A DNA stretch of 54,627 nt from a virus. Positions 3,433-54,627 of this stretch are shown piece after piece. A program made the position numbers and the translations under genes. How positions within the stretch are numbered: the stretch's first letter is position 1; every line of letters starts with the position of its first letter. The notes under the pieces are model-generated. The model saw only the letters and a program-made list of their open reading frames with translations. It was not told where the DNA came from and made no database searches. Where the stretch lies: IMG/VR virus record IMGVR_UViG_3300045988_061949; one strand, written 5' to 3'.

Positions 3433-4419
3433 TTGATAAAACTACAAGATACAATTATCCAATCTGATACTCAATCAATATTAGATATGCTTAAATTTGA
3501 CCTAGCCCAACATGGAGTTGATAGATTTCATATTTTCAGAAACAATGGTGAAAATGTGCAAACGAATTGTCCTTTCCACAAGAATGGACAAGAGCGAAAA
3601 CCATCTTTTGGTGTAAATGGTGAGATTGATAAATGTCATTGTTTCTCATGTGGCTGGAGCGGTACAATAGAAGAAATGATATCTGAATTATATGGATATC
3701 AAGATGGAGGTAAATTTGGAAAAAGATGGCTAATAAAAAGATTTAATACAGTAGAAATTGAAACAAGACCAAATATAATGGAGGGATTTAATGACAGAAC
3801 GAGTGATATTTATAATCGTAATAGGTGCAATAATATATGCGATAGTGAATATAATAAGGATTGTGATAGATATATTGGAGAACTGGAACTAGATAAGTAT
3901 AGATATATTCATCCTTATATGTATGAAAGAGGATTGACAGATGAAATTATAGAAAGGTTTGATATAGGATATGACAGAGAGCGAAAAGAAATTACATTCC
4001 CAGTTAGAGACACTGAAGGAAGATGTGTTTTTGTTGCTGGAAGAAGTGTCGAGCGAAAGTTCTTCCGACTTCCCAAAGGTCTCGATAAGCCTATCTATTG
4101 CGCAGATAAATTTAGAGGTGGAGCGTATAGAACGGCTTATATCACTGAGTCATTCTTGAATTGTTTAACTTGCTGGAAATATGATAAACCCGCTATGGCT
4201 ATGGCAGGCACCGGAAATAAAAAGCAGTATGAAATATTGAATAAGTTACCAGTGCGGGAATATATTCTTGCATTTGACCCAGACGAAGCAGGAAGAAAAG
4301 CAACAGAAAGATTTAGAAAGAATGTACACGGAAAAATTATAAAAGAACTTGTATATCCAGATAATCGTGATATAAATGATTTGCAAGAAGAATTTTTAAA
4401 TTGCAAAATTATTTTTTAA
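3433..4419 (+). CDS. dnaG: DNA primase (CHC2 zinc finger plus Toprim)
   Basis: CPFHKNGQERKPSF...CHCFSCGWSG zinc finger. Toprim motifs ITESFLN and AFDPDEAGRKA. TTG start. Confidence 0.85.
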   Translation: MIKLQDTIIQSDTQSILDMLKFDLAQHGVDRFHIFRNNGENVQTNCPFHKNGQERKPSFGVNGEIDKCHCFSCGWSGTIEEMISELYGYQDGGKFGKRWLIKRFNTVEIETRPNIMEGFNDRTSDIYNRNRCNNICDSEYNKDCDRYIGELELDKYRYIHPYMYERGLTDEIIERFDIGYDRERKEITFPVRDTEGRCVFVAGRSVERKFFRLPKGLDKPIYCADKFRGGAYRTAYITESFLNCLTCWKYDKPAMAMAGTGNKKQYEILNKLPVREYILAFDPDEAGRKATERFRKNVHGKIIKELVYPDNRDINDLQEEFLNCKIIF

Positions 4420-4426
4420 AAAAGTG

Positions 4427-4482
4427 TTGACAAATCTACTTTTATGTATTACAATATACTTGTAAATAAGAAATACATAAAA
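4427..4482 (+). promoter_or_regulatory. Conserved promoter, copy 1: TTGACA (4427-4432), 17-nt spacer, TACAAT (4450-4455). An 11-bp inverted repeat (TTTTATGTATT / AAATACATAAAA) straddles the -10.
   Basis: Hexamers and spacer counted directly. The same element occurs at six other sites. Confidence 0.8.
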
Positions 4483-5940: not shown

Positions 5941-6243
5941 ATGAAAAAATTATTTATTAGTCAGCCAATGTTCGGCAAGACAGATGAGGAAATTAAGTCA
6001 GAGAGAAATGAAATTCTACAAAGAGTAAAAGAGAGATATTCAAATGAAGAAATAGAAATCATTGATTCTTTTTTTGAAAATGCACCATATGCCGCAACAC
6101 CATTGTGGTTTTTAGGTAAATCATTAGAATTACTTTCAACCGCTGATATTGTATACTTTGCAAATGGTTGGGAAGAATATAGAGAATGTAGCATTGAGCA
6201 TAAATGTGCAAGGGAATATGGAATCAATATTATTCACGATTAG
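5941..6243 (+). CDS. Nucleoside 2-deoxyribosyltransferase-like (DUF4406-like) small protein
   Basis: LFISQPMFG near the N-terminus and ADIVYFANGWEEYRECSIEHKCAREYG near the C-terminus fit my recollection of that family. Confidence 0.4.
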   Translation: MKKLFISQPMFGKTDEEIKSERNEILQRVKERYSNEEIEIIDSFFENAPYAATPLWFLGKSLELLSTADIVYFANGWEEYRECSIEHKCAREYGINIIHD

Positions 6244-6252
6244 GAGGATTAT

Positions 6253-8511
6253 ATGGCATTATCATTTGCAAGACCAAAAAGCAATGATAAGAATATAATC
6301 AAGAAATCTAAAACAGTAACAAATAGAACAAGTATTAGGAGCGGCGGAAATAATCTTGCCGCTCAAGTACAATCTATAGTTGCCGTTGCTAATCAGAAAT
6401 TAGCAATTCATAAAGATGATTATATTCTTATCAGAGAACCTGACCAACTATATGAATACATGAAAGAAATGAAGCAAGTTGGAGAAGGCGCATTAGATAC
6501 AGAGACAACAGGATTAAATCCATTACTTGTAAATATAGTTGGTGGATGTATTTATACTCCCGGACAGAAAGCGGCATATATTCCTATTAATCATAAATCA
6601 TATATAACAGGTGTGAGAACTAAAGACCAGTTAGATGAACAGACAGTTTCAAAGATTATGAAAGAATTTCATAATGATATTAGATGGGTTTTTCATAATG
6701 CAAAATATGATATCCGAGTATGTAGAAAGACACTTGGAATAGATTTCAAACCTTATTGGGATACAATGTTAGCGGCATACTGTATAGATGAAGAGGAAAG
6801 TCACAGATTGAAAGACTTACATCTTAAATATTGTGATAGCAAAGATACAGAATCATTGACCTTTGATTCTTTGTTTAATGGTGTTATTTTCGACAATATT
6901 CCAATATCAACTGCATATTTATATGCCGCAGGTGACCCTATAAAGACATATGAATTGTATGAGTATCAAAAAACCTTATTAAACAGACGAGTATTAGCTG
7001 GCCCATATAATGTATTCAAGAATATAGAAATGCCTTTGATTTCTGTTGTAGCAGATATGGAAGATAGAGGGGTTTGTTTGGATTTTGATGTTTGTAAAAA
7101 TCTACATGAAAAATATCACGCTATTAGAGAAGAAAGACAAAAACAGGCGGATGAAGCAATAGCAATGTATAAGGATGAAATTGATAATTATAAGATGAAA
7201 AATCCGAATAATAAGTTATCTGACCCTATATCATTATCAAGTCCTACACAGTTGGCTATATTATTCTATGATATTTTAGGATTAGAAAGTCCTGACAAGA
7301 AAGCACCACGAGGAACAGGAGAGGAAATTTTAAAGCATTTTTCAAAAGGTAAAGAAAAGAATCTCTGTGAAGCAATACTTGGAATGAGAAATGTTGAAAA
7401 ATTGTTAGGAACATATATTGATAAAATGCCAGAAATAGCATTAAAAGATGGACGAGTACATGCAAGTTATAATCAGTATGGAGCAAAGACTGGTAGATTC
7501 AGTTCACAAGACCCTAATTTACAGAATATTCCTTCGCACAACAAAGACATTAGACAGATGTTCAAAGCACAAGACGGATATGTTTTAATTGGTGGAGATT
7601 ACAGTCAACAGGAGCCAATGGTTACAGCACATCTTTCTAAAGATAGAAAAATGAAGGAAGCCTTTATGAATGGTAAAGATATATATGCTACAATAGCTTC
7701 ATTAGCTTTCCATAAACCTTATGAAGAATGTAAAGAGTTTAGGAAAGATGGAACAGTCAATCCAGAAGGAAAAGAAAGAAGAACACAAGCTAAAAGTATT
7801 GTATTAGGTATTCTATATGGAAGACAGATTCCTTCTATAGGTGGACAGTTGGGAGTATCTACAAAAGAAGCACAAGGTATATATGATGCTGTTCTTAAAG
7901 CCTTTCCTGAATTGGCACAGTTTATTAAAGATTCACAGAATATGGCAAGAACTGAAGGTTATGTAACTACTGCATGGGGTAGAAGAAGACATTTACATGA
8001 TATGCAGTTAGAGCGATATGAATTTTCATATAATGGAAAAGTAACTAATTTTGACCCATTAGCATTTGGAAGTGAAGTTTCCACGGAAGTTCCTAAGAAA
8101 GTAAAAGACAGTTATATCAAACAACTTGATAAGGTGTTTGGGTGGAAAAAGAAAAATGATATAATTCAAAAAGCATTATCTGAAGGAATTAAAATTAAAG
8201 ATAATGGTGGATTCATATCACAGGCAGAAAGACAATGTGTAAATGCAAGAGTTCAAGGTTCTGCGGCAGATATGGCAAAATTAGCAATGATTTCAATTAA
8301 TAATGATAAAATAATGAAAGAATTAGATTTTCATTTACTTATCTGTGTGCATGATGAAGTAATAGGAGAATGTCCAAAAGAAAACGCTAAAGAAGTTAAA
8401 GAAAGATTATCCTACCTTATGAGAGCAGCTCCATCACACTTAATAGAATTACCTTTCAAATGTGATTGTGAAGTCTCTTATAATTGGTATGGAGAAAGTG
8501 TGGAGGTATAA
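6253..8511 (+). CDS. polA: Family A DNA polymerase with a 3'-5' exonuclease domain
   Basis: Exonuclease motifs LDTETTGL and HNAKYD. Polymerase motif A DYSQQEP, motif B RRTQAKSIVLGILYG, motif C VHDEV. Confidence 0.9.
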   Translation: MALSFARPKSNDKNIIKKSKTVTNRTSIRSGGNNLAAQVQSIVAVANQKLAIHKDDYILIREPDQLYEYMKEMKQVGEGALDTETTGLNPLLVNIVGGCIYTPGQKAAYIPINHKSYITGVRTKDQLDEQTVSKIMKEFHNDIRWVFHNAKYDIRVCRKTLGIDFKPYWDTMLAAYCIDEEESHRLKDLHLKYCDSKDTESLTFDSLFNGVIFDNIPISTAYLYAAGDPIKTYELYEYQKTLLNRRVLAGPYNVFKNIEMPLISVVADMEDRGVCLDFDVCKNLHEKYHAIREERQKQADEAIAMYKDEIDNYKMKNPNNKLSDPISLSSPTQLAILFYDILGLESPDKKAPRGTGEEILKHFSKGKEKNLCEAILGMRNVEKLLGTYIDKMPEIALKDGRVHASYNQYGAKTGRFSSQDPNLQNIPSHNKDIRQMFKAQDGYVLIGGDYSQQEPMVTAHLSKDRKMKEAFMNGKDIYATIASLAFHKPYEECKEFRKDGTVNPEGKERRTQAKSIVLGILYGRQIPSIGGQLGVSTKEAQGIYDAVLKAFPELAQFIKDSQNMARTEGYVTTAWGRRRHLHDMQLERYEFSYNGKVTNFDPLAFGSEVSTEVPKKVKDSYIKQLDKVFGWKKKNDIIQKALSEGIKIKDNGGFISQAERQCVNARVQGSAADMAKLAMISINNDKIMKELDFHLLICVHDEVIGECPKENAKEVKERLSYLMRAAPSHLIELPFKCDCEVSYNWYGESVEV

Positions 8512-8515
8512 AATA

Positions 8516-9373
8516 TTGGAATTGTATTTTGCCGGTGATTGTAATAAGAATGTTGAAGACTTCATGTTTAAGAAGAATTGTAAGAGATTATTTAGTTATT
8601 ACAGAGACCGTAGTTCGATAAAAAAATATATTGAAAAAGGAGGAAAACAAATATTTCTTGATTCCGGCGCTTTTAGTGCATATAACTCAGGAGCAACAAT
8701 TAATATAGATGAGTTGTGTAATTATGCAAATTCTATTTCTGAGTACTGTACATTTATTGCTTGTTTAGATGTTATTGGAGATGCAGAACAATCATATACA
8801 AATTATATCTATATGCGTAGAAAATTAAAAGAACCAAATAAATTAATTGCTTGTTTTCATGCAAATGAACCAATAGAATATTTATATAAATATTTAACTT
8901 ATGTAGATAACTATGGAAAATTATCAAATCTTGCTTTAGGTGGGGTTGCTCAGTTGCCAGGTTCCTCTATTCGTCCTTTTTTGGATATGTGTGAACCTAT
9001 ATGTAGTAAATATCCGGATGTATGGATTCATGCTTTTGGTTTAACCAATTTTCCTCTAGTTGAATGTTATTCTTTTATTGATTCTATTGATAGCACAAAA
9101 CATATTATGCAACCAATATATGGACATTTAATATTACCACCTAAATATAAGTGTATATCAATTGGTAAGAACTCAAGATACAAAGATTATATTTCCACAA
9201 CTGATAATAAGATAATAAAGACTATATGTTCTAAAATAAACTTGACTATCCAAGATTTGATTGATACTGATTGGTGTAGAAGTATTTTTTATGTTGAAGT
9301 TATGTTAGAGTGGTTAAAAAAATATAATGAAAAAAATACACATATTACAGTAAAAAGAAAAAAATTATTTTAA
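8516..9373 (+). CDS. dpdA: DpdA-like DNA-guanine transglycosylase (TGT superfamily)
   Basis: FLDSGAFS, LALGGVAQ and WIHAFGL motifs in TGT/DpdA order. TTG start 9 nt after GGAGG (alternative ATG at 8489). It sits next to queD, queE and folE. Confidence 0.65.
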   Translation: MELYFAGDCNKNVEDFMFKKNCKRLFSYYRDRSSIKKYIEKGGKQIFLDSGAFSAYNSGATINIDELCNYANSISEYCTFIACLDVIGDAEQSYTNYIYMRRKLKEPNKLIACFHANEPIEYLYKYLTYVDNYGKLSNLALGGVAQLPGSSIRPFLDMCEPICSKYPDVWIHAFGLTNFPLVECYSFIDSIDSTKHIMQPIYGHLILPPKYKCISIGKNSRYKDYISTTDNKIIKTICSKINLTIQDLIDTDWCRSIFYVEVMLEWLKKYNEKNTHITVKRKKLF

Positions 9374-9387
9374 GGAGGATATTAATA

Positions 9388-10236
9388 ATGGAAGAAAAAA
9401 AGATTGTGAAAAAAATTGAAGAAGGTATGGACCCACAAGATGTTCTTTGCACCACTTATCAGATGAGAAATTTTTATATGCAGTTTCGAGATGGATTTTT
9501 TTCTAATTTGGATGTGATGAATTATATCCAGCATCATGCAGTTGCTTTGATGGCAAAAAAAGGAATGAATGTTGTGGACGTTTGTTGTGGACGTTCCTTA
9601 GTATTACCTTTGTTAAGATATTATGCCAGGGATATTAATAGTTATACTGGAGTGGATATTTGTTTCACAAATATAAGAGAGGCAAAAAGAGATGCAAGTG
9701 CAAAAGTATTAAAGGAAGAAGACTTGGAAGAATATTATCCATTTAAAACAGATTGGATACTTTCAAATGTAGCAGAAATGTCTAATCATATAGAGAAAGG
9801 TTTTGCTGATTTGGTTATTTACACATCTGCATTGGAACATATGCATAAAGATGTTGGAACACAAAGTCTTATAGAGTGTCATAAGATTATGAATAAAGAT
9901 TCCATTATGTTTCTTAGTTGTCCAAATACTCCAGGAAATGGTTATGAAACACAATATGCCGCACACGTTTATGAATGGGGTTACGATGAATTAAAAGAAA
10001 AACTTAATGAACTTGGATTTGAAATAATCAATGAAGTTGGTTTGGTTATGAAAGTCAAGAAAATGAAAGAGTTTTTCTCCAGTGATAAAGTTTCAAAAGA
10101 TATGAAAGATTTCTATAATAAGATGTCTTTATATATGCCGAGTGCATGGTTGAGCTCCATTGTAAGCATTCCATATCCAAAGGAATCAGATGAAATATTA
10201 TTTATAGTTAAGAAAAAATCTAAGAAACTTTTCTAA
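9388..10236 (+). CDS. Class I SAM-dependent methyltransferase of small-molecule type (not a DPPY or PCQ DNA methyltransferase)
   Basis: Motif I VVDVCCGRS, YTGVDI, and DLVIYTSALEHM. GGAGG RBS. C-terminus KKKSKKLF. Confidence 0.7.
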   Translation: MEEKKIVKKIEEGMDPQDVLCTTYQMRNFYMQFRDGFFSNLDVMNYIQHHAVALMAKKGMNVVDVCCGRSLVLPLLRYYARDINSYTGVDICFTNIREAKRDASAKVLKEEDLEEYYPFKTDWILSNVAEMSNHIEKGFADLVIYTSALEHMHKDVGTQSLIECHKIMNKDSIMFLSCPNTPGNGYETQYAAHVYEWGYDELKEKLNELGFEIINEVGLVMKVKKMKEFFSSDKVSKDMKDFYNKMSLYMPSAWLSSIVSIPYPKESDEILFIVKKKSKKLF

Positions 10237-10243
10237 AAAAGCA

Positions 10244-10272
10244 TTGACAAATATCCTTTTATGTATTACAAT
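10244..10272 (+). promoter_or_regulatory. Conserved promoter, copy 2 (TTGACA-N17-TACAAT)
   Basis: Hexamers at 10244-10249 and 10267-10272. The spacer contains TTTTATGTAT. Confidence 0.8.
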
Positions 10273-10323
10273 ATAAATATATTAAAAAGATAATATGTAT
10301 GACATAAAAGGAGGATTGATATT

Positions 10324-10866
10324 ATGTATTATTTATCAAAGCGAGACAACGCAACAAAAATAAAAGTAGACGAGGGTTATTCTAATGAGAACACTGTAAT
10401 GATTGAATATCTTAATGGACCTAAACAAGGAAAAGCTGTTCCTATCACTCGTAGCACTTTAAAGAGATGGTGGAAAAAAGTTGAGCAAGAAAATACATCG
10501 GTGCAGATGCCTAGTACTGAAAAATTAGAAAATGTTAAAAATGTTTGCCCAATTAAAAAAACAACCAAAAAAATTGACAGAACAGAAGATGTAGAAAAAA
10601 TAGTTAAGATGCTTATTGATGATTATGTGTATAAATATTATGATTCAGTAAATTGTTATAAAGTGTATGATATTATGGCACAGAATCATGTTATTGCAGA
10701 AATATATCCACAAAGAAAGAAGATTGTTTGTTATTTACGTTCTTTAGAAGGTATGGACTTATCAAAAACTATTTTCCACAAGCAAGGTTATAAGTATTAT
10801 CTACCTTGTCGAGCAGATATCTCATATGATGATGATTTTATTTCTATATTGAAAAACTTTTTATAG
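10324..10866 (+). CDS. Hypothetical protein inserted within the deazaguanine cluster
   Basis: 180-aa ORF with GGAGG RBS. Its N-terminus MYYLSKR mirrors the QueD N-terminus MYYVSKR. Confidence 0.7.
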   Translation: MYYLSKRDNATKIKVDEGYSNENTVMIEYLNGPKQGKAVPITRSTLKRWWKKVEQENTSVQMPSTEKLENVKNVCPIKKTTKKIDRTEDVEKIVKMLIDDYVYKYYDSVNCYKVYDIMAQNHVIAEIYPQRKKIVCYLRSLEGMDLSKTIFHKQGYKYYLPCRADISYDDDFISILKNFL

Positions 10867-10879
10867 GAGGATTAAAAAT

Positions 10880-11233
10880 ATGTATTATGTATCAAAAAGA
10901 ATGGAAATAGCAGGAGCTCATCATTTAGAACTCCCGTATGATAGCAAGTGTGAGAATCTGCATGGACATAATTGGATAGTTACTGTTTATTGTAAATCGG
11001 ACAAGCTCACTGATTATGGAATGATTGTAGATTTTACAAAAATTAAAAAAGAGATACACGATAAGTTAGACCATGCTTGTATTAATGATGTTGTGTATCC
11101 TCTTAATCCAACTGCTGAGAATATGGCAAAATGGATATGCAAAAGAGTTTCAGATATCTGTGAAGTTGGTCAGTGTTACAAAGTAGAAGTTCAAGAAAGC
11201 GAAGGCAATATCGCCGTTTATATGGAGGATTAA
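10880..11233 (+). CDS. queD: 6-carboxy-5,6,7,8-tetrahydropterin synthase
   Basis: CENLHGHNW motif, 117 aa, adjacent to queE. Confidence 0.85.
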   Translation: MYYVSKRMEIAGAHHLELPYDSKCENLHGHNWIVTVYCKSDKLTDYGMIVDFTKIKKEIHDKLDHACINDVVYPLNPTAENMAKWICKRVSDICEVGQCYKVEVQESEGNIAVYMED

Positions 11234-11237
11234 AAAA

Positions 11238-11882
11238 ATGAAAGTAGTAGAAATATTTAAGAGCATTGATGGTGAGGGTAAGCGAGCTGGCTTACCTACC
11301 ACCTTTATAAGATTATTTGGATGCAATTTGAATTGCTCTTATTGTGATACACGATATGGGTGTGAAGGAGAAGGATATTCAATTATGAGTATTCCACAGA
11401 TTGTTAATGCAGTGGAAAGAGGTGGCATTCATTCAGTAACAATAACTGGAGGAGAACCTCTTGTGCATCCAGGTATTAATAAACTTGTTAATATATTATT
11501 GGAAAAAGGTTACTGGGTAAATATCGAGACTAATGGTTCACAGTACATTGGAAAATTTCCAGTAAATCCACTTTTATTCTTCACCATGGACTATAAATGC
11601 CCTTCAAGTGGTATGGAAAATCATATGGATTGTCATAACTTTAGATTACTGTCAAGGAATGATGTGCTTAAATTTGTTGTAGGTAGTCAGGAGGATTTGA
11701 ATAAAGCATTACAAGTTATTGAGAAATATAATCCACATGCACAGATATATTTTAGTCCAGTATTTGGTGAAATTGAACCTAAAGAAATAGTGGATTATTT
11801 ATTAAAGCATAAGATGTATGACTGTAAAGTTCAGATTCAGTTACATAAGATTATATGGAATCCAAATGAGAGAGGTGTCTAA
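11238..11882 (+). CDS. queE: 7-carboxy-7-deazaguanine synthase (radical SAM)
   Basis: [10 protein letters not shown] radical-SAM cluster motif, ITGGEPL, 214 aa. Confidence 0.85.
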
Positions 11883-11884
11883 CA

Positions 11885-12457
11885 ATGATTGATAAGAAAA
11901 GAATAGAGAAAGCAATCAAGGAAATATTAATTGCATTAGGAGATGACCCAGATAGACCGGGACTTGTAGATACACCAAAGAGAGTGGCAAAGATGTATGA
12001 AGAAGTATTTGAAGGTATGAATTATACTAATGCAGAAATTGCAGATAAATTCTGTAAATGCTTTGATACTGATAATAATGATTTAGTTGTTGTACAGGAT
12101 ATTCCAATATTTAGTTACTGTGAACATCATTTAGCTCTTATGTATAACATGACTGTTTCTATCGCTTATATACCTAATGGCAAAGTATTAGGATTAAGTA
12201 AGTTTGCTCGTATTGCTGATATGGTTGGAAAGCGACTACAGCTTCAGGAGAGAATAGGTTCAGATATTGCTGAGATTGTACAGATGGCAACCGGTTCAAA
12301 TGATGTATTAGTAGTTGTACAAGGAGAACATAGTTGTATGACTGCAAGAGGTATCAAGAGTCGAGGAGCTAAGACAAGAACAGCCACTATAAGAGGTGAG
12401 TTCAATGATAATGTTGAATTAAGAAAAGAAGCTTATTCATTAATGAACTTGAATTAA
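11885..12457 (+). CDS. folE: GTP cyclohydrolase I
   Basis: CEHHL, QLQERI and GEHSCM motifs. Confidence 0.9.
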
Positions 12458-12469
12458 AGGAGGAACAAA

Positions 12470-13564
12470 ATGAAAGTAGTAACAAGCAGAATGAAAGAAG
12501 CAGTAAACAAAGCAATTAAAGGAGCAGGATTTAATAATCTTATTCCTATTACCTCAATGATAGGTATTAAGTTATCAGATGGAAAGTTAAGATTGCTTAC
12601 AACAGATATGACTAATACATTATGTATTATCATCGACAAAGTAGCCGGAGACGATATGGACATCACAGTAGATGCAGATAAGTTTGGAAAATTGATTGCA
12701 AAGACAACATCTGAGGATATTGACTTATCTGTAAAAGATGATGTACTTTTTGTAAAAGCAAATGGAACTTATAAGATTCCATTGATTTCAGATGAGGAAG
12801 GACTTATCTCATTCCCAGATATTAAGTCAATGGACGATAAGAATGTGCAGTGTATGACTAAGCTGTCAAGCGTTATGCAGGCCTATAATATTAATAAATC
12901 AGCACTTGCAAAGACATTAGAAAATCCAGCTTTAACTGGTTACTATTGTGGGGATACTGTTATTAGTACGGATGCAAATGTAATCACATTCAATGGATTT
13001 AAGATGTTTGATTGTGAACAGCCAATTCTTATTTCCGCTCAGCAGATGCAGTTATTGACACTGAATACAAAGGAAGATATTGTGGTTTTTATAGGAAGAA
13101 CGAGTATTCAGTTTGTGACAGAAGATGTGGTTATTGATGGGGCATTAATGGAGGGAATTGAAGATTTCCCAGCTAACGAGGTAAACGCTTATCTTGATGA
13201 GGCATTTACATCTTCCTGCAAAGTACCAAAGGATTTACTTCTTTCCGTACTTGATAGACTTGCATTATTCATTGAGCCTTATGATAAGAATGGAGCATAT
13301 TTCACATTTGGAAGAAAAGGTATTAATATTCATAGTAAAAAGGATGCTTCAACAGAGACTATCAACTATGTAGAAAGTAAGGACTTTGAACCATTTGTAT
13401 GTTGTGTAGATATTCCAATGCTGAAAGAACAGTTGCAGGCTAATCCAGATGATATAGTGAAGATTTGCTATGGAAATGAAAATGCTTTGAAGATTGAGAG
13501 TGGAAAAGTAACACAGGTTATAGCTTTGCTTGAGGATGAAGAATTAGATAATAAATCTGAATAA
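12470..13564 (+). CDS. dnaN: Sliding clamp (DNA polymerase III beta-like)
   Basis: 364 aa. The N-terminal pattern (IPITSMIGIKLSDGKLRLLTTDMT ... VDADKFGKLI ... SFPDI) parallels DnaN domain I. Confidence 0.6.
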   Translation: MKVVTSRMKEAVNKAIKGAGFNNLIPITSMIGIKLSDGKLRLLTTDMTNTLCIIIDKVAGDDMDITVDADKFGKLIAKTTSEDIDLSVKDDVLFVKANGTYKIPLISDEEGLISFPDIKSMDDKNVQCMTKLSSVMQAYNINKSALAKTLENPALTGYYCGDTVISTDANVITFNGFKMFDCEQPILISAQQMQLLTLNTKEDIVVFIGRTSIQFVTEDVVIDGALMEGIEDFPANEVNAYLDEAFTSSCKVPKDLLLSVLDRLALFIEPYDKNGAYFTFGRKGINIHSKKDASTETINYVESKDFEPFVCCVDIPMLKEQLQANPDDIVKICYGNENALKIESGKVTQVIALLEDEELDNKSE

Positions 13565-13574
13565 GCATACATAC

Positions 13575-13603
13575 TTTACAAGATGATTAATTTGTATTAT
13601 AAT
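13575..13603 (+). promoter_or_regulatory. Promoter TTTACA-N17-TATAAT
   Basis: Hexamers at 13575-13580 and 13598-13603. The spacer was counted as 17. Confidence 0.6.
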
Positions 13604-13706: not shown

Positions 13707-13726
13707 TGTATTTTTATAAAAAACTA

Positions 13727-13755
13727 TTGACAAATATAGTTTTATGTATTACAAT
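13727..13755 (+). promoter_or_regulatory. Conserved promoter, copy 3 (TTGACA-N17-TACAAT)
   Basis: Hexamers at 13727-13732 and 13750-13755. ATGTATT lies upstream and AATACAT downstream. Confidence 0.8.
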
Positions 13756-13808
13756 ATAAACATAATAAAACAAAGAACAAAATACATAAAAAACAGGAGG
13801 AACAAAAT

Positions 13809-20552: not shown

Positions 20553-20572
20553 ATGTATTTTTATAAAAACTG

Positions 20573-20601
20573 TTGACAAATATAGTTTTATGTATTACAA
20601 T
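20573..20601 (+). promoter_or_regulatory. Conserved promoter, copy 4 (TTGACA-N17-TACAAT)
   Basis: Hexamers at 20573-20578 and 20596-20601. The downstream 5' UTR is near-identical to copies 1 and 5. Confidence 0.8.
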
Positions 20602-20646
20602 ATACTTGTAAATAAGAAATACATAAAAATAACGGAGGTAATAATT

Positions 20647-21942: not shown

Positions 21943-22134
21943 ATGGAAAGTATTACAAGTAATAGTACAAGAAGAGTAACAAAAAAAGAATTGATTGAAG
22001 CTATTAACCAATCATTTCCCGATGATGATGTTATGAAGGACAATTATGTAATTGCAGTGGTTACCGAGGTAGCATGTCATTATAATGACCCTACACTGCA
22101 ATCAATACAATTTGGAAAGAAGCTTAACTTTTAG
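21943..22134 (+). CDS. Hypothetical protein
   Basis: AGGAGAAAA RBS, 63 aa. Confidence 0.55.
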   Translation: MESITSNSTRRVTKKELIEAINQSFPDDDVMKDNYVIAVVTEVACHYNDPTLQSIQFGKKLNF

Positions 22135-22678: not shown

Positions 22679-23731
22679 ATGGCAAAGGAAGCATTAGCAG
22701 TAAAATATCGACCAAAAGTATTCGAGGACATGACTGAGCAGTCAGCTATTAAAGACATATTAATGAACCAGTTGGAGACAAAGACTTTTCAGCATGGTTA
22801 TCTTTTTACAGGGCCAGCCGGAACAGGTAAAACTACAAGTGCCAGAATATTCGCTAATATGATAAATGCAGGAAAAGGAAATCCTATTGAAGTGGATGCC
22901 GCAAGTAATAGTGGGGTGGATAATATACGACAGATTATAGAGGACGCAAAGAGAAAACCACTTGATGCAGAATACAAGATATTTATAGTGGATGAGTGTC
23001 ATTCATTATCAAATGGTGCTTGGCAGGCATTATTAAAGACACTTGAAGAACCCCCAAAATTTACTATTTTCATTTTCTGCACAACGGACCCACAGAAAGT
23101 GCCTGCAACAATTCTTTCAAGAGTACAACGATACAATTTTCAGAAGATAAGTAATGAAGGAATTGTAAAAAGATTGGAGCATATTTGTGTACTTGAAAAC
23201 TCCCAAGATTATAATGACCCTGACCTTAGGGATATTGGTGATATAATAAGATATCCCGAAGCATTAGAATATATTGCCAAGGTTTGTAACGGCGGAATGA
23301 GAGATGCTATTACCTTACTAGATAAATGTCTTTCATTATCCCATGATTTAACACTGGAAAATGTCTTAAAAACTATAGGTGCAGAAGATTATAATACATT
23401 TATATTATTCTTAACAGCCTTACAGAATAAAGAAAAAGGAACCGCTATTACTACAATAGAAAATGTATATAATGCTGGTAAAGATGTAAAGCAGTTTATG
23501 AAAGACTTTGCAAAGTTTGTTCTTGAAGTTGAAAAGTATGCACTATATAAGAATTTTGATTATATTAACTTACCTAATACACTTGAGAATGAGTTAGAAC
23601 AGTTTATTGATGATGCACTATTCAATGTCATGGACTTTGTAGTTTCTTTGAATAGTCAGATTAAATGGGATAGTGACCCTAAGACTTTAGTAGAATTATC
23701 TATTTTGATTTATTGTGGAAAGGAGAATTAG
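22679..23731 (+). CDS. dnaX: Clamp-loader ATPase (DNA polymerase III gamma/tau-like)
   Basis: KYRPKVFEDM, GPAGTGKTT, IVDECHSLS, LLKTLEEPP, ILSRVQRYNF. Confidence 0.85.
   Translation: MAKEALAVKYRPKVFEDMTEQSAIKDILMNQLETKTFQHGYLFTGPAGTGKTTSARIFANMINAGKGNPIEVDAASNSGVDNIRQIIEDAKRKPLDAEYKIFIVDECHSLSNGAWQALLKTLEEPPKFTIFIFCTTDPQKVPATILSRVQRYNFQKISNEGIVKRLEHICVLENSQDYNDPDLRDIGDIIRYPEALEYIAKVCNGGMRDAITLLDKCLSLSHDLTLENVLKTIGAEDYNTFILFLTALQNKEKGTAITTIENVYNAGKDVKQFMKDFAKFVLEVEKYALYKNFDYINLPNTLENELEQFIDDALFNVMDFVVSLNSQIKWDSDPKTLVELSILIYCGKEN
23711..23730. repeat. Junction repeat TATTGTGGAAAGGAGARTTA, repeated at 24011-24030
   Basis: The two copies differ at one position. Confidence 0.85.
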
Positions 23732-23733
23732 GT

Positions 23734-23949
23734 ATGTATGATAATAATCTTTACAAGAAATCTGATAACATTCGCAGAATGATAGATGGAGAACTTAATA
23801 GAATTGCTGTCACAGATGATGCGGAGGAAATAATAAGAATGATGGGTTATTTAATGCTCAACATAAATAGATATGCAGAAATTGCAAAATTAAGAATTGG
23901 AAAAGACAACATTAGAAAATTAAGTGCTGATGGAAAGTTAAATTTATGA
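23734..23949 (+). CDS. Hypothetical protein (cassette a)
   Basis: AGGAGA RBS. ORF begins MYDNNLYKK. Confidence 0.6.
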   Translation: MYDNNLYKKSDNIRRMIDGELNRIAVTDDAEEIIRMMGYLMLNINRYAEIAKLRIGKDNIRKLSADGKLNL

Positions 23950-24008
23950 TAGGACAGAAGAATAATCTAAATACGGTCACAAATTGGCGAAAGAATAATC
24001 AATATTAG
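23946..24008 (+). pseudogene. Diverged duplicate of the 5' end of the holB-like gene (MIGQKNNLNTVTNWRKNNQY-stop)
   Basis: The first 21 nt match 24232-24252 except at one base. The remainder is alignable but diverged and ends in TAG. Confidence 0.6.
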
Positions 24009-24032: not shown

Positions 24033-24251
24033 ATGATAAAAGCAGGAACGAAGTGCAGAGTATTAGCTGATAGTGAAAATAATTTTAAACCCGGAGATAT
24101 TGTCGTAGCTTTAGAGGAGGATAATGTGTCATATTGTTGTTTACTTGAAGATTATGACCCTAACAAAAGTATAGGTAACTATAATTTCAATTTATATCAT
24201 GCTTTATCTGAGTTTGAATTGGAGGCGCTGGATGATAGGACAGAAAAATAA
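24033..24251 (+). CDS. Hypothetical protein (cassette b)
   Basis: AGGAGAG RBS inside the junction repeat. ORF begins MIKAGTKCRV. Confidence 0.6.
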   Translation: MIKAGTKCRVLADSENNFKPGDIVVALEEDNVSYCCLLEDYDPNKSIGNYNFNLYHALSEFELEALDDRTEK

Positions 24252-25023
24252 TATTAGTACTATTATTAAATGGCGATGTAATAAATCTATTCCCAGGTTC
24301 ATAATAATATCAGGAGCACAAGGAAGCGGAAGATTAATCTTTGCAAAAATCATTATAAAAATGATAAGTGCAAAAGGAATAATCATGAGAAACAGTATTG
24401 CAGAAGTACGAGAAACAATAGAAAATGCTTATACTATTACAGAGCCAACTTGTTATATTTTTAGAGATGCGGACGATATGAAAAATGAAGCAAAAAACGC
24501 ACTTCTTAAAGTTGTGGAGGAGCCACCTAATAATGCTTATTTTATAATGACAGTTCATAACATTGATAATATGTTAGGTACTATTAGAAGCAGGGGAACA
24601 GTTATTAAAATGGAACCATATACACCACAGGAATTAAAGTCAGTATGTGATGATGAATTAAAGCTTGAGTACTGCACTAATATAGGTGAATTACAAGTTG
24701 CACACGAAGAAGTGCAGAGAACGGAAGATTGTGTGGATGATGTATTAAAGGCTCTAAGAGAAAAGAGTGGTACTAAACTATTAAAAGCTTGTACACAGTT
24801 AAAAGCTAAACAGACAGAGATAGATAAGATTGATTGCTTATTATTTATGAGAGTATTTCAAAAAAGATTTTACAAAATTTACGATTTTTGTAATATTCCT
24901 ATTACAAGTTTGAATTACATAACAGAATGTAAGAATCAGTTAAATCGTAATGCCATTAATAAAAAATCCAGCATAGAAACTATGCTTATTAAGATATTGG
25001 AGGAAATTAAAAATGAGACTTAA
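24232..25023 (+). CDS. holB: Clamp-loader delta-prime-like AAA+ subunit
   Basis: ISGAQGSGR, LLKVVEEPPNNAYFIM, TIRSRG. The ATG overlaps the upstream stop (ATGA). Confidence 0.7.
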   Translation: MIGQKNNISTIIKWRCNKSIPRFIIISGAQGSGRLIFAKIIIKMISAKGIIMRNSIAEVRETIENAYTITEPTCYIFRDADDMKNEAKNALLKVVEEPPNNAYFIMTVHNIDNMLGTIRSRGTVIKMEPYTPQELKSVCDDELKLEYCTNIGELQVAHEEVQRTEDCVDDVLKALREKSGTKLLKACTQLKAKQTEIDKIDCLLFMRVFQKRFYKIYDFCNIPITSLNYITECKNQLNRNAINKKSSIETMLIKILEEIKNET

Positions 25024-25279
25024 AGATGTTACAAGAAGATTTGATAATAGCAAATTCTACAAAGGCAAGTACAAAAAGTTTGAATGTATGATAAATTACT
25101 CATCAAATTTAGATTGTTGGTACTACTGCATAGATTCTAATGATGAAAGGGATATACGCTACAACAGTTTATGGGATGAAGTAAACTTTAAAACTCAAGA
25201 AGATTGTATAAAAGGTTGTCAGGCTTATATTGATGAGGTGATTATTAAAAATGCAAAAATTTCCAAGAAGATGGGATAA
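25013..25279 (+). CDS. Hypothetical protein
   Basis: 88-aa ORF with overlapping start. Confidence 0.55.
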   Translation: MRLKDVTRRFDNSKFYKGKYKKFECMINYSSNLDCWYYCIDSNDERDIRYNSLWDEVNFKTQEDCIKGCQAYIDEVIIKNAKISKKMG

Positions 25280-25619
25280 ACTCACTTGTATCAATTTTTT
25301 ACAAAGAAAAATAATAATACTATCTATAGCTTATTACGAATTAAGCCAAAATCTAATAGATGACTCATTATTTGATAAGTACTGTAAACAGCTTGTGAGT
25401 ATGCATAAGGAGCATGGAGATATATCAGACACAGAATATGGATATGCTTTTGGGAATGATTTTGATGGAAGTACCGGATTTTATTTATATTATAATCTCA
25501 ATGAGCATGATAAAGAATATTTATATCATATTACTTATCATATTATTCATAATAATTCATTTCCTGAAGCTATTTCTGTAACCCAGCAAACATCTAAAAA
25601 GAAAGGAAAGCTATTCTAA
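25251..25619 (+). CDS. Hypothetical protein ending in KKKGKLF
   Basis: 122-aa ORF. The start is uncertain. Its C-terminal tail resembles those of DpdA and the methyltransferase. Confidence 0.55.
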   Translation: MQKFPRRWDKLTCINFLQRKIIILSIAYYELSQNLIDDSLFDKYCKQLVSMHKEHGDISDTEYGYAFGNDFDGSTGFYLYYNLNEHDKEYLYHITYHIIHNNSFPEAISVTQQTSKKKGKLF

Positions 25620-25831
25620 TGGAATTGTACACTATCAAAGACCTGACAGAAGAAAGAATGTATTTTAATGCCAGAGGCGGAGCTTATCAGAATAAATCAA
25701 TGGCAATAAAGAAAATGAACTGTCTAAGAGCTAAATATCCCACTCATATTATATATCTTGTAACCTTTGTACCTATCACTTTAGCACCACCATGCCCGAG
25801 CTATGGAGTAACAGGAGGAAATAAAACATGA
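25619..25831 (+). CDS. Hypothetical protein
   Basis: 70-aa ORF with coupled start. Confidence 0.5.
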   Translation: MELYTIKDLTEERMYFNARGGAYQNKSMAIKKMNCLRAKYPTHIIYLVTFVPITLAPPCPSYGVTGGNKT

Positions 25832-26772
25832 AGCTTGTAGATTTAATGAAACGTATATCTTCCAATGATATTCCACACTTTTTGATATTATTTGGGGAAG
25901 AGCAAACAATTCTAAATATATATCTAACACATATATTAGAAGTTACAAAGACTAAACGTATAAGCGCAGATTCAGTATCGTATGTAATGCAAAATATAAA
26001 CAAGAAAAGATTTGATAAATCTCTCAGACTATATGTAGTTCAAGATGATATGTCATTTTTAAAGGCTGAGGATAGCTGGGAAACTGTACGAAATACACCA
26101 ACTAAAGATTATATCATTCTTAGATATCATAGCTTAGATAAGCGCTCTGCGTTTGTAAAGAAGAATCAACAAAATTTAGTTGAATTTTCACGTTTAACTA
26201 AAGAGGTGTTACAAACATACATATCTAAAGATTTATCCGATTTAAGCGAGAAAAATTCAAGCAAGTTAGTTGAGTATTGCAATTATGATTATGGTAGAAT
26301 ATTGATGGAAATAGATAAAATTAAGCAATATTCGTCTATTAGAACTGATTTGACCCTTGATAGTTGTTTTGAGAGATTAGATAAGCAAGGATTATTTCAT
26401 AAAGAAATAGGAGATATAACCTTTGAATTAACTAATGCAGTATTAGGTGGATATACAGAAACAGCTATACAGAAACTTGATGAAGCTAAAAGAAAAGGTG
26501 AACCTGTTATGATGATTGTATCAATCTTATATACTGGTTTTAGAAACTTATTAGCATATCAAGGATTGGGAAGTAATAAGCAAGGAGCTATAGAACGAAC
26601 TGGAATGACAAAAGGAGAGTTGTATGGCTGTACTAAGAATGTAGGTGGATATAGTATAACAGAAGTTAAAAGAAATATGCTTAAATGTCAAGAGATAGAA
26701 TCAGGGATTAAGATGGGAACTATAGATGAAGATATAGCTCTTGAATATGCTGTTTTGTCCTGTCTTGCCTAA
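25828..26772 (+). CDS. holA: Clamp-loader delta-like subunit
   Basis: 314 aa. The N-terminal IPHFLILFGEEQTILNIYL is HolA-like. It sits beside the dnaX/holB-like genes. Confidence 0.5.
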   Translation: MKLVDLMKRISSNDIPHFLILFGEEQTILNIYLTHILEVTKTKRISADSVSYVMQNINKKRFDKSLRLYVVQDDMSFLKAEDSWETVRNTPTKDYIILRYHSLDKRSAFVKKNQQNLVEFSRLTKEVLQTYISKDLSDLSEKNSSKLVEYCNYDYGRILMEIDKIKQYSSIRTDLTLDSCFERLDKQGLFHKEIGDITFELTNAVLGGYTETAIQKLDEAKRKGEPVMMIVSILYTGFRNLLAYQGLGSNKQGAIERTGMTKGELYGCTKNVGGYSITEVKRNMLKCQEIESGIKMGTIDEDIALEYAVLSCLA

Positions 26773-26802
26773 TAAATTTTTATGTATTTTTATAAAAAAG
26801 TG

Positions 26803-26831
26803 TTGACAAATCTACTTTTATGTATTACAAT
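26803..26831 (+). promoter_or_regulatory. Conserved promoter, copy 5 (TTGACA-N17-TACAAT)
   Basis: Identical to copy 1 over roughly 60 nt, including the 5' UTR. Confidence 0.8.
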
Positions 26832-26876
26832 ATACTTGTAAATAAGAAATACATAAAAAACAGGAGGAACAAAGAT

Positions 26877-50266: not shown

Positions 50267-50286
50267 TTTTAATGTACATAAAACTA

Positions 50287-50315
50287 TTGACAATAATAGT
50301 TTTATGTATTACAAT
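50287..50315 (+). promoter_or_regulatory. Conserved promoter, copy 6 (TTGACA-N17-TACAAT)
   Basis: Hexamers at 50287-50292 and 50310-50315. An ATGTACATAAAA box lies upstream. Confidence 0.8.
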
Positions 50316-50347
50316 ATAAATAAATTAAAGAAAGGAGAAATTATATA

Positions 50348-52063: not shown

Positions 52064-52083
52064 ATAAAAAATACATAAAACTA

Positions 52084-52112
52084 TTGACAATTATATTTTT
52101 ATGTATTACAAT
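52084..52112 (+). promoter_or_regulatory. Conserved promoter, copy 7 (TTGACA-N17-TACAAT)
   Basis: Hexamers at 52084-52089 and 52107-52112. An AATACATAAAA box lies upstream. Confidence 0.8.
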
Positions 52113-52153
52113 ATTAACAAAGAAACATATATATCATTTTTGGAGGATTAAAA

Positions 52154-54140: not shown

Positions 54141-54627
54141 ATGCAAATGGTACACAATGAAAATTATATAACAATCCAAGGTTGGATGATTAATGAATTA
54201 GGATTAAAAGGAAACTCATTGATTATATATGCTACTATTTATGGATTTTCTCAAACTAATAATTGTGAATTTACAGGCAGTGCTAATTATTTAGCTCAAT
54301 GGTGTGGGTGTTCCAGACAGACAGTTATGACAGTACTTAATAAGCTGATTGCAGACAATTTGATTATAAAACATGAAGAATTTAGAAACAATGTCAAGTT
54401 TTGCTCATATGGTGTAAATTTGACAGGATGTCAAAATTCTTTACAAGGGGATGTCAAAAAATTTGACAAGGGAATGTCAAAAAATTTGACAGGGGGATGT
54501 CAAAATTCTTTACATAATAATATAGATAAAAACAATAGAAATAAAAATATAGAAGATATTATAGATAAGAAAAATTCTAAAAAGAAATCTAAAATTGATA
54601 TTAAAATCGAATCTATAGAAAAAAAAT
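54141..54627 (+). CDS. N-terminal part of the replication initiator / replisome organizer. It continues at base 2 across the junction.
   Basis: AAGGAGAA RBS. wHTH-like N-terminus (SANYLAQWCGCSRQTVMTVLNKLIADNLI). The frame is still open at the window end. Confidence 0.75.
   Translation, partial: MQMVHNENYITIQGWMINELGLKGNSLIIYATIYGFSQTNNCEFTGSANYLAQWCGCSRQTVMTVLNKLIADNLIIKHEEFRNNVKFCSYGVNLTGCQNSLQGDVKKFDKGMSKNLTGGCQNSLHNNIDKNNRNKNIEDIIDKKNSKKKSKIDIKIESIEKK
54428..54516. repeat. Four iterons with an exact 23-bp period (ATGTCAAAA cores at 54428, 54451, 54474 and 54497). They are built from TTGACA/TGTCAA inverted pairs.
   Basis: Positions counted directly. A fifth, partial copy (ATGTCAAG) starts at about 54390. 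Confidence 0.85.
54539..54627. repeat. Second copy of the 89-bp terminal repeat
   Basis: Identical to 1-89. Confidence 0.95.

Follow-up and report, generated by a model that had tools for sequence, protein, structure and literature searches.

The clamp-binding motif of bacteria is a short peptide, either a QL[S/D]LF pentapeptide or a QLxLxL hexapeptide, which docks on the β sliding clamp, with examples at the C-terminal ends of Pol II and Pol IV of E. coli and at the N-terminus of Hda. Here we report on comparable C-terminal tails encoded in a viral DNA of 54,627 nucleotides (IMG/VR virus record IMGVR_UViG_3300045988_061949; the whole stretch analysed is called the window below). They are carried by a DpdA-like DNA transglycosylase, an S-adenosylmethionine (SAM)-dependent methyltransferase and a solo protein of the NAD+-binding ligase domain Ia (Nlig-Ia) type. 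As with the bacterial motif, the tails are short, flexible peptides with a free terminus ending in Leu-Phe, they occur on unrelated clients and they are found together with one DnaN-type clamp. In contrast to it, Lys/Arg residues replace Gln1 and Leu2 in the lineage of the window, the clamp has an acidic C-terminal extension, and the clients are base-modifying enzymes instead of polymerases and repair proteins. Probably, these tails are copies of a lineage-specific short linear motif for sliding-clamp binding, [KR]-[KR]-x-L-F, placed at the free C-terminus of a flexible extension.

In eukaryotes, DNMT1 and PCNA, through a PIP-box, couple maintenance methylation to replication. The mechanism proposed below is similar in that a DNA methyltransferase would be tethered to a sliding clamp and modification would follow the fork, but the clamp family, the motif and the domain of life are different, and several modification chemistries would here share one tag. 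In phages, the single earlier claim that a modification enzyme binds a clamp concerns the T4 alpha-glucosyltransferase and gp45; it was proposed from in vitro results, and a 2025 preprint found no interaction (10.64898/2025.12.06.692756). It would likewise be a phage DNA-modifying enzyme riding the phage clamp. That case consists of one disputed interaction with a gp45-type clamp and no recognised shared motif, whereas the present one involves a conserved motif, at least nine families, many phage lineages and a β-type clamp. Bacterial DpdA, for its part, needs DpdB, which is a ParB-like ATPase and, according to modelling, encircles DNA (PMC10164549). A DpdA with a DNA-engaging partner is also what we propose for phages, in which, unlike in the bacterial system, clamp-adjacent DpdAs have tails and ParB-adjacent ones do not. 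Finally, MuC of phage Mu is reported to have a clamp-binding motif that recruits the host β clamp for late transcription (PMC12867686). It is, like the clients in the window, a phage protein outside the replisome with such a motif, but there the clamp is that of the host and a transcription factor is the single client.

Full-text literature searches returned no paper linking DpdA, 7-deazaguanine enzymes or phage DNA methylases to a sliding clamp. The word 'clamp' is absent from the two main phage 7-deazaguanine papers, and the Dp-1 host interactome paper makes no mention of gp7, gp10, DnaN, queuine or clamp. Insertion of 7-deazaguanine has been described simply as 'post-replicative' (PMC10516641). 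While a clamp-binding peptide is a known kind of element, apparent novelty lies in the class of clients, in the basic variant that goes with an acidic-tailed clamp, and in the dichotomy of clamp and ParB.

Three unrelated proteins with similar C-termini

The DpdA-like protein ends in ..VKRKKLF, the methyltransferase in ..KKKSKKLF and the Nlig-Ia protein in ..SKKKGKLF (Table 1). These three open reading frames (ORFs) and their ends had been singled out in an original prediction made from the DNA letters, and the translations confirm them. The tails had been called identical; they are similar in all three proteins, but KRKKLF, KSKKLF and KKGKLF are not the same sequence. The further statement that the remainders of the proteins are unrelated is correct, as they fall into separate families (TGT-like phrog_887, SAM methyltransferase PF13489 and Nlig-Ia PF22745).

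The terminal Leu-Phe is encoded by TTA TTT, CTT TTC and CTA TTC, and the DNA 3' of the tails is a ribosome-binding site, a promoter and an overlapping TAATG start, respectively. With codons and downstream DNA both differing, the resemblance lies at the protein level. On account of the same codon differences, an origin in the DNA itself, such as a palindrome, a terminator or a promoter UP element, was rejected; only the methyltransferase tail abuts the promoter repeat, a copy of which begins directly after its stop codon. Of the five KLF tripeptides in the window proteome (16,773 residues), three are C-termini. When random internal positions were used as pseudo-C-termini (20,000 trials), a tripeptide common to three proteins was obtained in about 1% of trials, and a shared tripeptide with at least three Lys/Arg residues upstream in none of the 20,000. 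The tail pattern is non-random and lies in the protein. An N-terminal MKKLF in ORF 5941-6243 (nucleoside deoxyribosyltransferase-like) was set aside; it runs into a conserved hydrophobic MKKLFISQP and is probably part of the fold.

In an AlphaFold2 model of the DpdA-like protein (mean local confidence, pLDDT, 93; predicted template modelling score 0.90), helical structure stops at residue 281, and the tail is carried by a coil made up of residues 282-294 (pLDDT about 62-65). The model thus places the tail on a flexible end of 13 residues. Foldseek matched the model to TGT structures with probability 1.0 and template modelling scores of 0.6-0.67. In the same operon are genes of the preQ0 (7-deazaguanine) pathway, encoding QueD, QueE and FolE. 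The protein combines a TGT-superfamily fold with a preQ0 gene cluster, from which transglycosylase activity is predicted. No ATPase partner is encoded next to it. All homologues of 57-98% identity end in [KR]3-4LF, two of 41-43% identity end in KKSLI, and the DpdA of a related phage, only 31% identical, ends in HKKSLF. One homologue (L001, 98% identical) is broken by frameshifts, probably assembly errors, and its tail is unreadable; the equivalent cluster P0001 ends in VKRRKLF.

Among homologues of the methyltransferase, those of 39-83% identity have LF-type tails (KQKTLF, KNKNKLF, NQKKLF, KRRTLLF, QGSIF and SLFED), while most of those of 25-40% identity stop at the domain boundary, without an extension. 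The tail is therefore an add-on to this enzyme. The third protein matches PF22745 with 56.8 bits (cut-off 27) over residues 11-85 of 122 and contains no ligase catalytic module. Such solo Nlig-Ia proteins have been described as a class and proposed to be NAD+ sensors (PMC9503650). In the window, the gene is placed between those for the delta-prime and delta subunits, inside the clamp-loader operon. An LF end is present in 99 of 120 homologues and takes the form KGGLF in 73 of them. The linker of 8-22 residues before the tail is hypervariable in length and sequence, and the KKKG[GK]LF end is conserved. Close homologues of all three proteins were found to keep the tail, the absence of which would have counted against clamp docking.

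Spread of the tail among related phages

A megablast search of positions 8400-13600 against GenBank phages found nothing. Relatives were drawn from IMG/VR, as 76 stretches with a clamp of 46-99% identity to that of the window. LF is the commonest C-terminal dipeptide among 1,879 unique ORFs of 77 related sequences (86 cases; the next, EE, has 65), and Lys or Arg nearly always precedes it. Families that mostly end in LF number 11 of 471, against 1.3 expected (P about 1e-7).

The [KR][KR]xLF tail is present on at least nine unrelated families, over which Leu-Phe is near-invariant, with rare LI variants (RRRRLI, KKSLI and KGKLI). Its bearers are several DpdA subtypes with a mutual identity of only about 30%, the window-type SAM methyltransferase, an N6/N4 DNA methylase (PF01555), a C5 DNA methylase (PF00145), a DpdM-like CxxCxxCC protein (its Pfam match being below cut-off, 21.7 bits vs 23), an ArcS2-like DUF5591 protein, DUF6884, a PAPS-reductase-like protein and Nlig-Ia. 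The cysteine motif of the DpdM-like protein resembles the CxxxCxxCC of DpdM, a methylase of dPreQ1 in DNA and a homologue of the zinc- or iron-binding YkgJ (PMC10516641). The clients of the tail are enzymes known or inferred to act on DNA after its synthesis, together with Nlig-Ia.

Between the genes for the family-A DNA polymerase (PolA) and the clamp, comparison of the relatives revealed a hypervariable modification island, which, judged by its gene content, is a swap site for DNA-modification systems. None of its eight small-molecule families (FolE, QueD, QueE, QueC, QueF, dCMP deaminase, Vut_1 transporter and DUF4406) has the tail (Fisher p = 0.013, with the classification being our own). 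The cargo in other relatives (L057 4715-5587, L061 7227-7691 and further island variants) includes a TET-associated glycosyltransferase, a dCMP deaminase, or C5 plus N6/N4 methylases with a SNF2-like helicase.

DpdA ends and neighbouring genes in other phages

Distant DpdA homologues have at the same position ..KKMQLDLF, ..TTQLKLF, ..KTQIALF, ..QQQTSLF and ..EKQQDLFGNRL, which are canonical types of the β-clamp-binding motif. The Gln and Leu positions of the pentapeptide can be recognised at this orthologous end (QLDLF, QLKLF, QIALF, QRRLF and also QELF), and 30 of 89 DpdA homologues end exactly in LF. In cultured phages, the DpdA of Dp-1 ends in ..RQRRLF, MS1 ..KQNRLF, Flasso ..QGKLF, 9g ..LQDLFDE, PAJD-1 ..IQELF, AQKL99 ..TQGLF, RHEph04 ..EQRLF, Seurat ..VMELF and a Stenotrophomonas phage ..QMELF. 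All nine phages have the clamp gene next to that of DpdA or at most five genes, about 2.7 kb, away from it, the order DpdA, clamp, polymerase being frequent.

A tailed DpdA is close to a phage clamp gene in 12 of 12 sampled lineages. Three DpdAs with a ParB-like neighbour and no clamp neighbour (those of Mycobacterium phage Godines, or L100, of Cellulophaga phi3ST:2, or L101, and of the metagenomic L093) are all tail-less. This split, 12/12 against 0/3, gives a Fisher p of 0.002 for what is a hand sample. It suggests that the clamp may be an alternative partner of DpdA to the ParB-like DpdB, and the ParB-like neighbours recall the bacterial DpdA/DpdB pair. Similarly, a tail-less subclade of Nlig-Ia belongs to phages without a clamp or clamp loader within 10 kb.

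The clamp, its loader and the polymerase

The β-like clamp and three-subunit clamp loader named in the original prediction were both recovered by Pfam, phrog and PDB-profile matches. Compared with the PDB, the clamp profile retrieves Firmicute β clamps (E 1.5e-18 over positions 2-351); given whole-length homology to the three domains of β and a cognate loader, the protein is by homology a β-type clamp. Its acidic end, LLEDE[DE]L[DE]N, is of invariant type across 119 homologues. The clamps of Queuovirinae, RHEph04 and L094 have cellular-β-like ends without the acidic extension, and clamps with such ends (..VGFRL, ..QVIAYVI) pair with non-basic tails. Over 12 lineages, which are not independent, the charge of the clamp end and that of the DpdA tail anticorrelate (Spearman -0.72, p = 0.008).

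The PolA of the window starts with MALSFARPKSNDK, which aligns with the PolA starts of Dp-1 and of the metagenomic relative L094. The PolA of Dp-1 (gp71) starts with MAQKGLFGAKPRS (motif MAQKGLF) and that of L094 with MAQQSLFDD (motif MAQQSLF); both are of the motif type of the respective DpdAs, which end in RQRRLF and TTQLKLF, and L094 has the gene order of the window. The end of the RHEph04 polymerase was checked for the DpdA motif and is without it. The PolA gene of some relatives is divided between two ORFs (L059 4042-7044, L060 1290-4452); between the halves in L060 is an HNH endonuclease gene whose product ends in ..RSGKLF.

In the delta subunit, a profile aligns KKSL/KKRF, including NKKRF of the window (25999-26013), to ETFPF of 3zh9_B ('DELTA'), a position that corresponds to the clamp-contacting element of cellular delta subunits. 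The confidence of this alignment is low, and it is taken as suggestive only.

Proposed mechanism and alternative explanations

The QLxLF-type ends of other DpdAs, the adjacency of DpdA and clamp genes, the PolA N-termini and the co-occurrence of tails with clamps together support the earlier proposal of clamp tethering, and we infer the tails to be a basic form derived from the β-clamp-binding motif. The analogy then drawn with T4 and RB69 tails is valid for function only, because the clamp is of the β/DnaN type and not of the PCNA/gp45 type. A PIP-box or T4 gp45-type tail was ruled out by this clamp type and by the lack of a PIP pattern in the tails. In the mechanism that we propose, the terminal Leu-Phe would enter the hydrophobic cleft of the phage β-type clamp, in preference to that of the host, and the Lys/Arg run would pair with the acidic C-terminal extension (LLEDEELDN). 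Clamps remaining on new duplex DNA would serve as a tether for the modifying enzymes, which would exchange or methylate bases directly behind the fork, and the new DNA would be chemically protected there.

Several observations weigh against this mechanism. The window tails lack both Gln1 and Leu2 of the QLxLF pentapeptide, the N-terminus of the window PolA (ALSF) is only loosely motif-like, and none of the Queuovirinae polymerases checked ends in the DpdA motif. Some DNA-acting proteins of the island have no tail, namely a TAGT glycosyltransferase, a second N6/N4 family, another SAM methyltransferase and a SNF2-like helicase, and neither do the Nlig-Ia-like proteins of Dp-1 and MS1. The L095 lineage counts both ways: three module proteins share an end flavour of its own (..KGFGL, ..KGLSV and ..KGLNI), which speaks for the mechanism, but no clamp is present in the stretch analysed. 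The lineage counts, moreover, were sampled by hand and carry no phylogenetic correction.

Docking on another hub, either the host β clamp or some other component of the replisome (PolA, SSB or the helicase, for example), would account for L095, and the canonical QLxLF-type tails of relatives would suit cellular β clamps too; replisome proteins have conspicuous tails of their own, such as ..EEDEY in the helicase and ..CKIIF in the primase. We nevertheless regard such a hub as unlikely, as DpdA and phage clamp genes are tightly linked in 12 lineages, the charge of the tail covaries with the C-terminus of the phage's own clamp, the derived basic motif is found together with the conserved acidic clamp extension, and Nlig-Ia is embedded in the clamp-loader operon.

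Less likely still is that the tails are C-terminal degrons or remodelling tags limiting the lifetime of the modifying enzymes. The RRKKAI end of MuA is a ClpX signal, and KRKKLF bears a superficial likeness to such a ClpX C-motif 2; the strict position at a free C-terminus would also fit. This idea is at odds with the non-basic Qx(x)LF found at orthologous positions in phages whose hosts range from E. coli to Streptococcus, with PolA N-termini that are of this motif type too, with the co-occurrence of tails and clamp genes, and with a Leu-Phe that is near-invariant and not merely hydrophobic. The proposal that the tails are non-specific, being basic ends of a generic DNA-binding kind in a genome rich in AT, or by-products of DNA signals at gene ends, derives some support from the composition of the window (32.5% GC, with a lysine-rich proteome) and from the overlap of the methyltransferase tail codons, as of the primase ..KIIF end, with the AT-rich upstream part of the repeated promoter module. 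It is very improbable given that the codons differ and only one tail in three abuts a promoter, that LF is in excess at the level of families (P about 1e-7), and that the tail is kept while the neighbouring linker varies freely, occurs in GC-richer phages of other hosts and is limited to DNA-acting enzymes and Nlig-Ia.

A broader version of clamp tethering, which we put forward tentatively and would not quite back as a whole, is that clamp and peptide form a private pair, a 'modification tool-belt', and that the clamp and the ParB-like DpdB are mutually exclusive partners of DpdA. The acidic-tailed β clamp and the basic [KR][KR]xLF peptide would have evolved together as this pair, and DNA-modifying enzymes entering the PolA-to-clamp island would join the replisome by gaining the tail. 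Both DpdA partners would encircle DNA, which could explain how transglycosylases exchange much of the G in DNA co-replicatively. Among orphan enzymes, those acting on DNA and not on the free base would be predictable from the tail, namely ArcS2, DUF6884 and the window methyltransferase.

Other features of the genome

The window has an exact 89-nt direct repeat at its two ends (1-89 and 54539-54627), so that it is apparently a complete genome, about 54.5 kb long, with either an assembly overlap or terminal redundancy. Its features are collected in Table 1.

Table 1. Coordinates of the tails, their bearers and associated features in the window
Feature	Position	Strand	Evidence or remark
PolA, replicative family-A DNA polymerase	6253-8511	+	N-terminus conserved in relatives
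Candidate clamp motif MALSFARPK, PolA N-terminus	6253-6279	+	
DpdA-like DNA transglycosylase, TGT superfamily (predicted)	8489-9373	+	phrog_887 E 1e-33
DpdA-like tail KRKKLF	9353-9370	+	
SAM-dependent methyltransferase	9388-10236	+	PF13489 and PF08241 matches
Methyltransferase tail KKKSKKLF	10210-10233	+	
QueD	10880-11233	+	ORF translation; CxxxHGH signature; tail-less
QueE	11238-11882	+	ORF translation; tail-less
FolE	11885-12457	+	ORF translation; tail-less
β-type (DnaN-like) sliding clamp	12470-13564	+	PF00712 above cut-off; phrog_947 E 5e-33
Clamp acidic C-terminal extension EDEELDNKSE	13532-13561	+	LLEDE[DE]L[DE]N in homologues
Clamp-loader gamma/tau-like ATPase	22679-23731	+	PF13177, PF22608, PF12169; phrog_5846 E 2e-89
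Clamp-loader delta-prime-like subunit	24232-25023	+	PF13177 E 1e-19
Solo Nlig-Ia protein	25251-25619	+	PF22745 E 3.7e-15
Nlig-Ia tail KKKGKLF	25596-25616	+	
Clamp-loader delta subunit	25828-26772	+	PF21694 E 6e-12
Promoter module, seven copies	4415-4479, 10232-10296, 13715-13779, 20561-20625, 26791-26855, 50275-50339, 52072-52136		strongly conserved

QueD, QueE and FolE of the window are enzymes of free-base synthesis; neither QueC nor QueF is present in its 7-deazaguanine module. The inserted base may be derived from 7-carboxy-7-deazaguanine (CDG), or host QueC may be needed, and the base is perhaps methylated on DNA. In L095, a QueE-like radical-SAM protein of this unrelated phage (2805-4409) has intein-type matches (PT-HINT / Intein_splicing).

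The promoter module has the form TTGACAAAT...TTTTATGTATTACAAT. Several of its copies are followed by near-identical leaders or ORF starts, for instance MYYNILVNKKYI at 20590 and 26820.

Conserved ends are also found on other replication proteins. The DnaB-like helicase (1621-2892) ends in an acidic run with an aromatic residue, ..EEDEY, or ..TEVF in relatives, and the primase (3487-4419) in a conserved hydrophobic-Phe end (..CKIIF, ..KITF, ..KEFF, ..PEYF). By analogy with T7 gp4 and gp2.5, of which they are reminiscent, these may be further docking tails of the replisome. Upstream of the clamp loader, a 63-residue ORF (21943-22134) has the conserved end QFGKKL[NET]F, or QFGKNLIF or QFGKNLKF in relatives, in which the tail may recur in spaced form.

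The delta-prime subunit probably starts with MIGQKNN at 24232, as its homologues do. Upstream of this start, the 5' end of the gene recurs in a partial duplicate of 53 nt (23946-23998 vs 24232-24284), which, along with two small ORFs between the tau and delta-prime genes, suggests a past insertion or rearrangement.

Implications for phage DNA modification

Cultured phages, among them Dp-1, MS1, 9g and Seurat, lend themselves to tests of the docking-tag mechanism. If correct, this mechanism would provide a concrete mechanism by which phage DpdA and other post-synthetic modifiers reach new DNA quickly enough to protect it, and a sequence rule separating DNA-acting from base-acting enzymes in hypermodification pathways. 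It would also offer a possible function for solo Nlig-Ia proteins, for which a role as NAD+ sensors is all that has been suggested to date, and would represent a case of joint divergence of a clamp and its motif in a virus.

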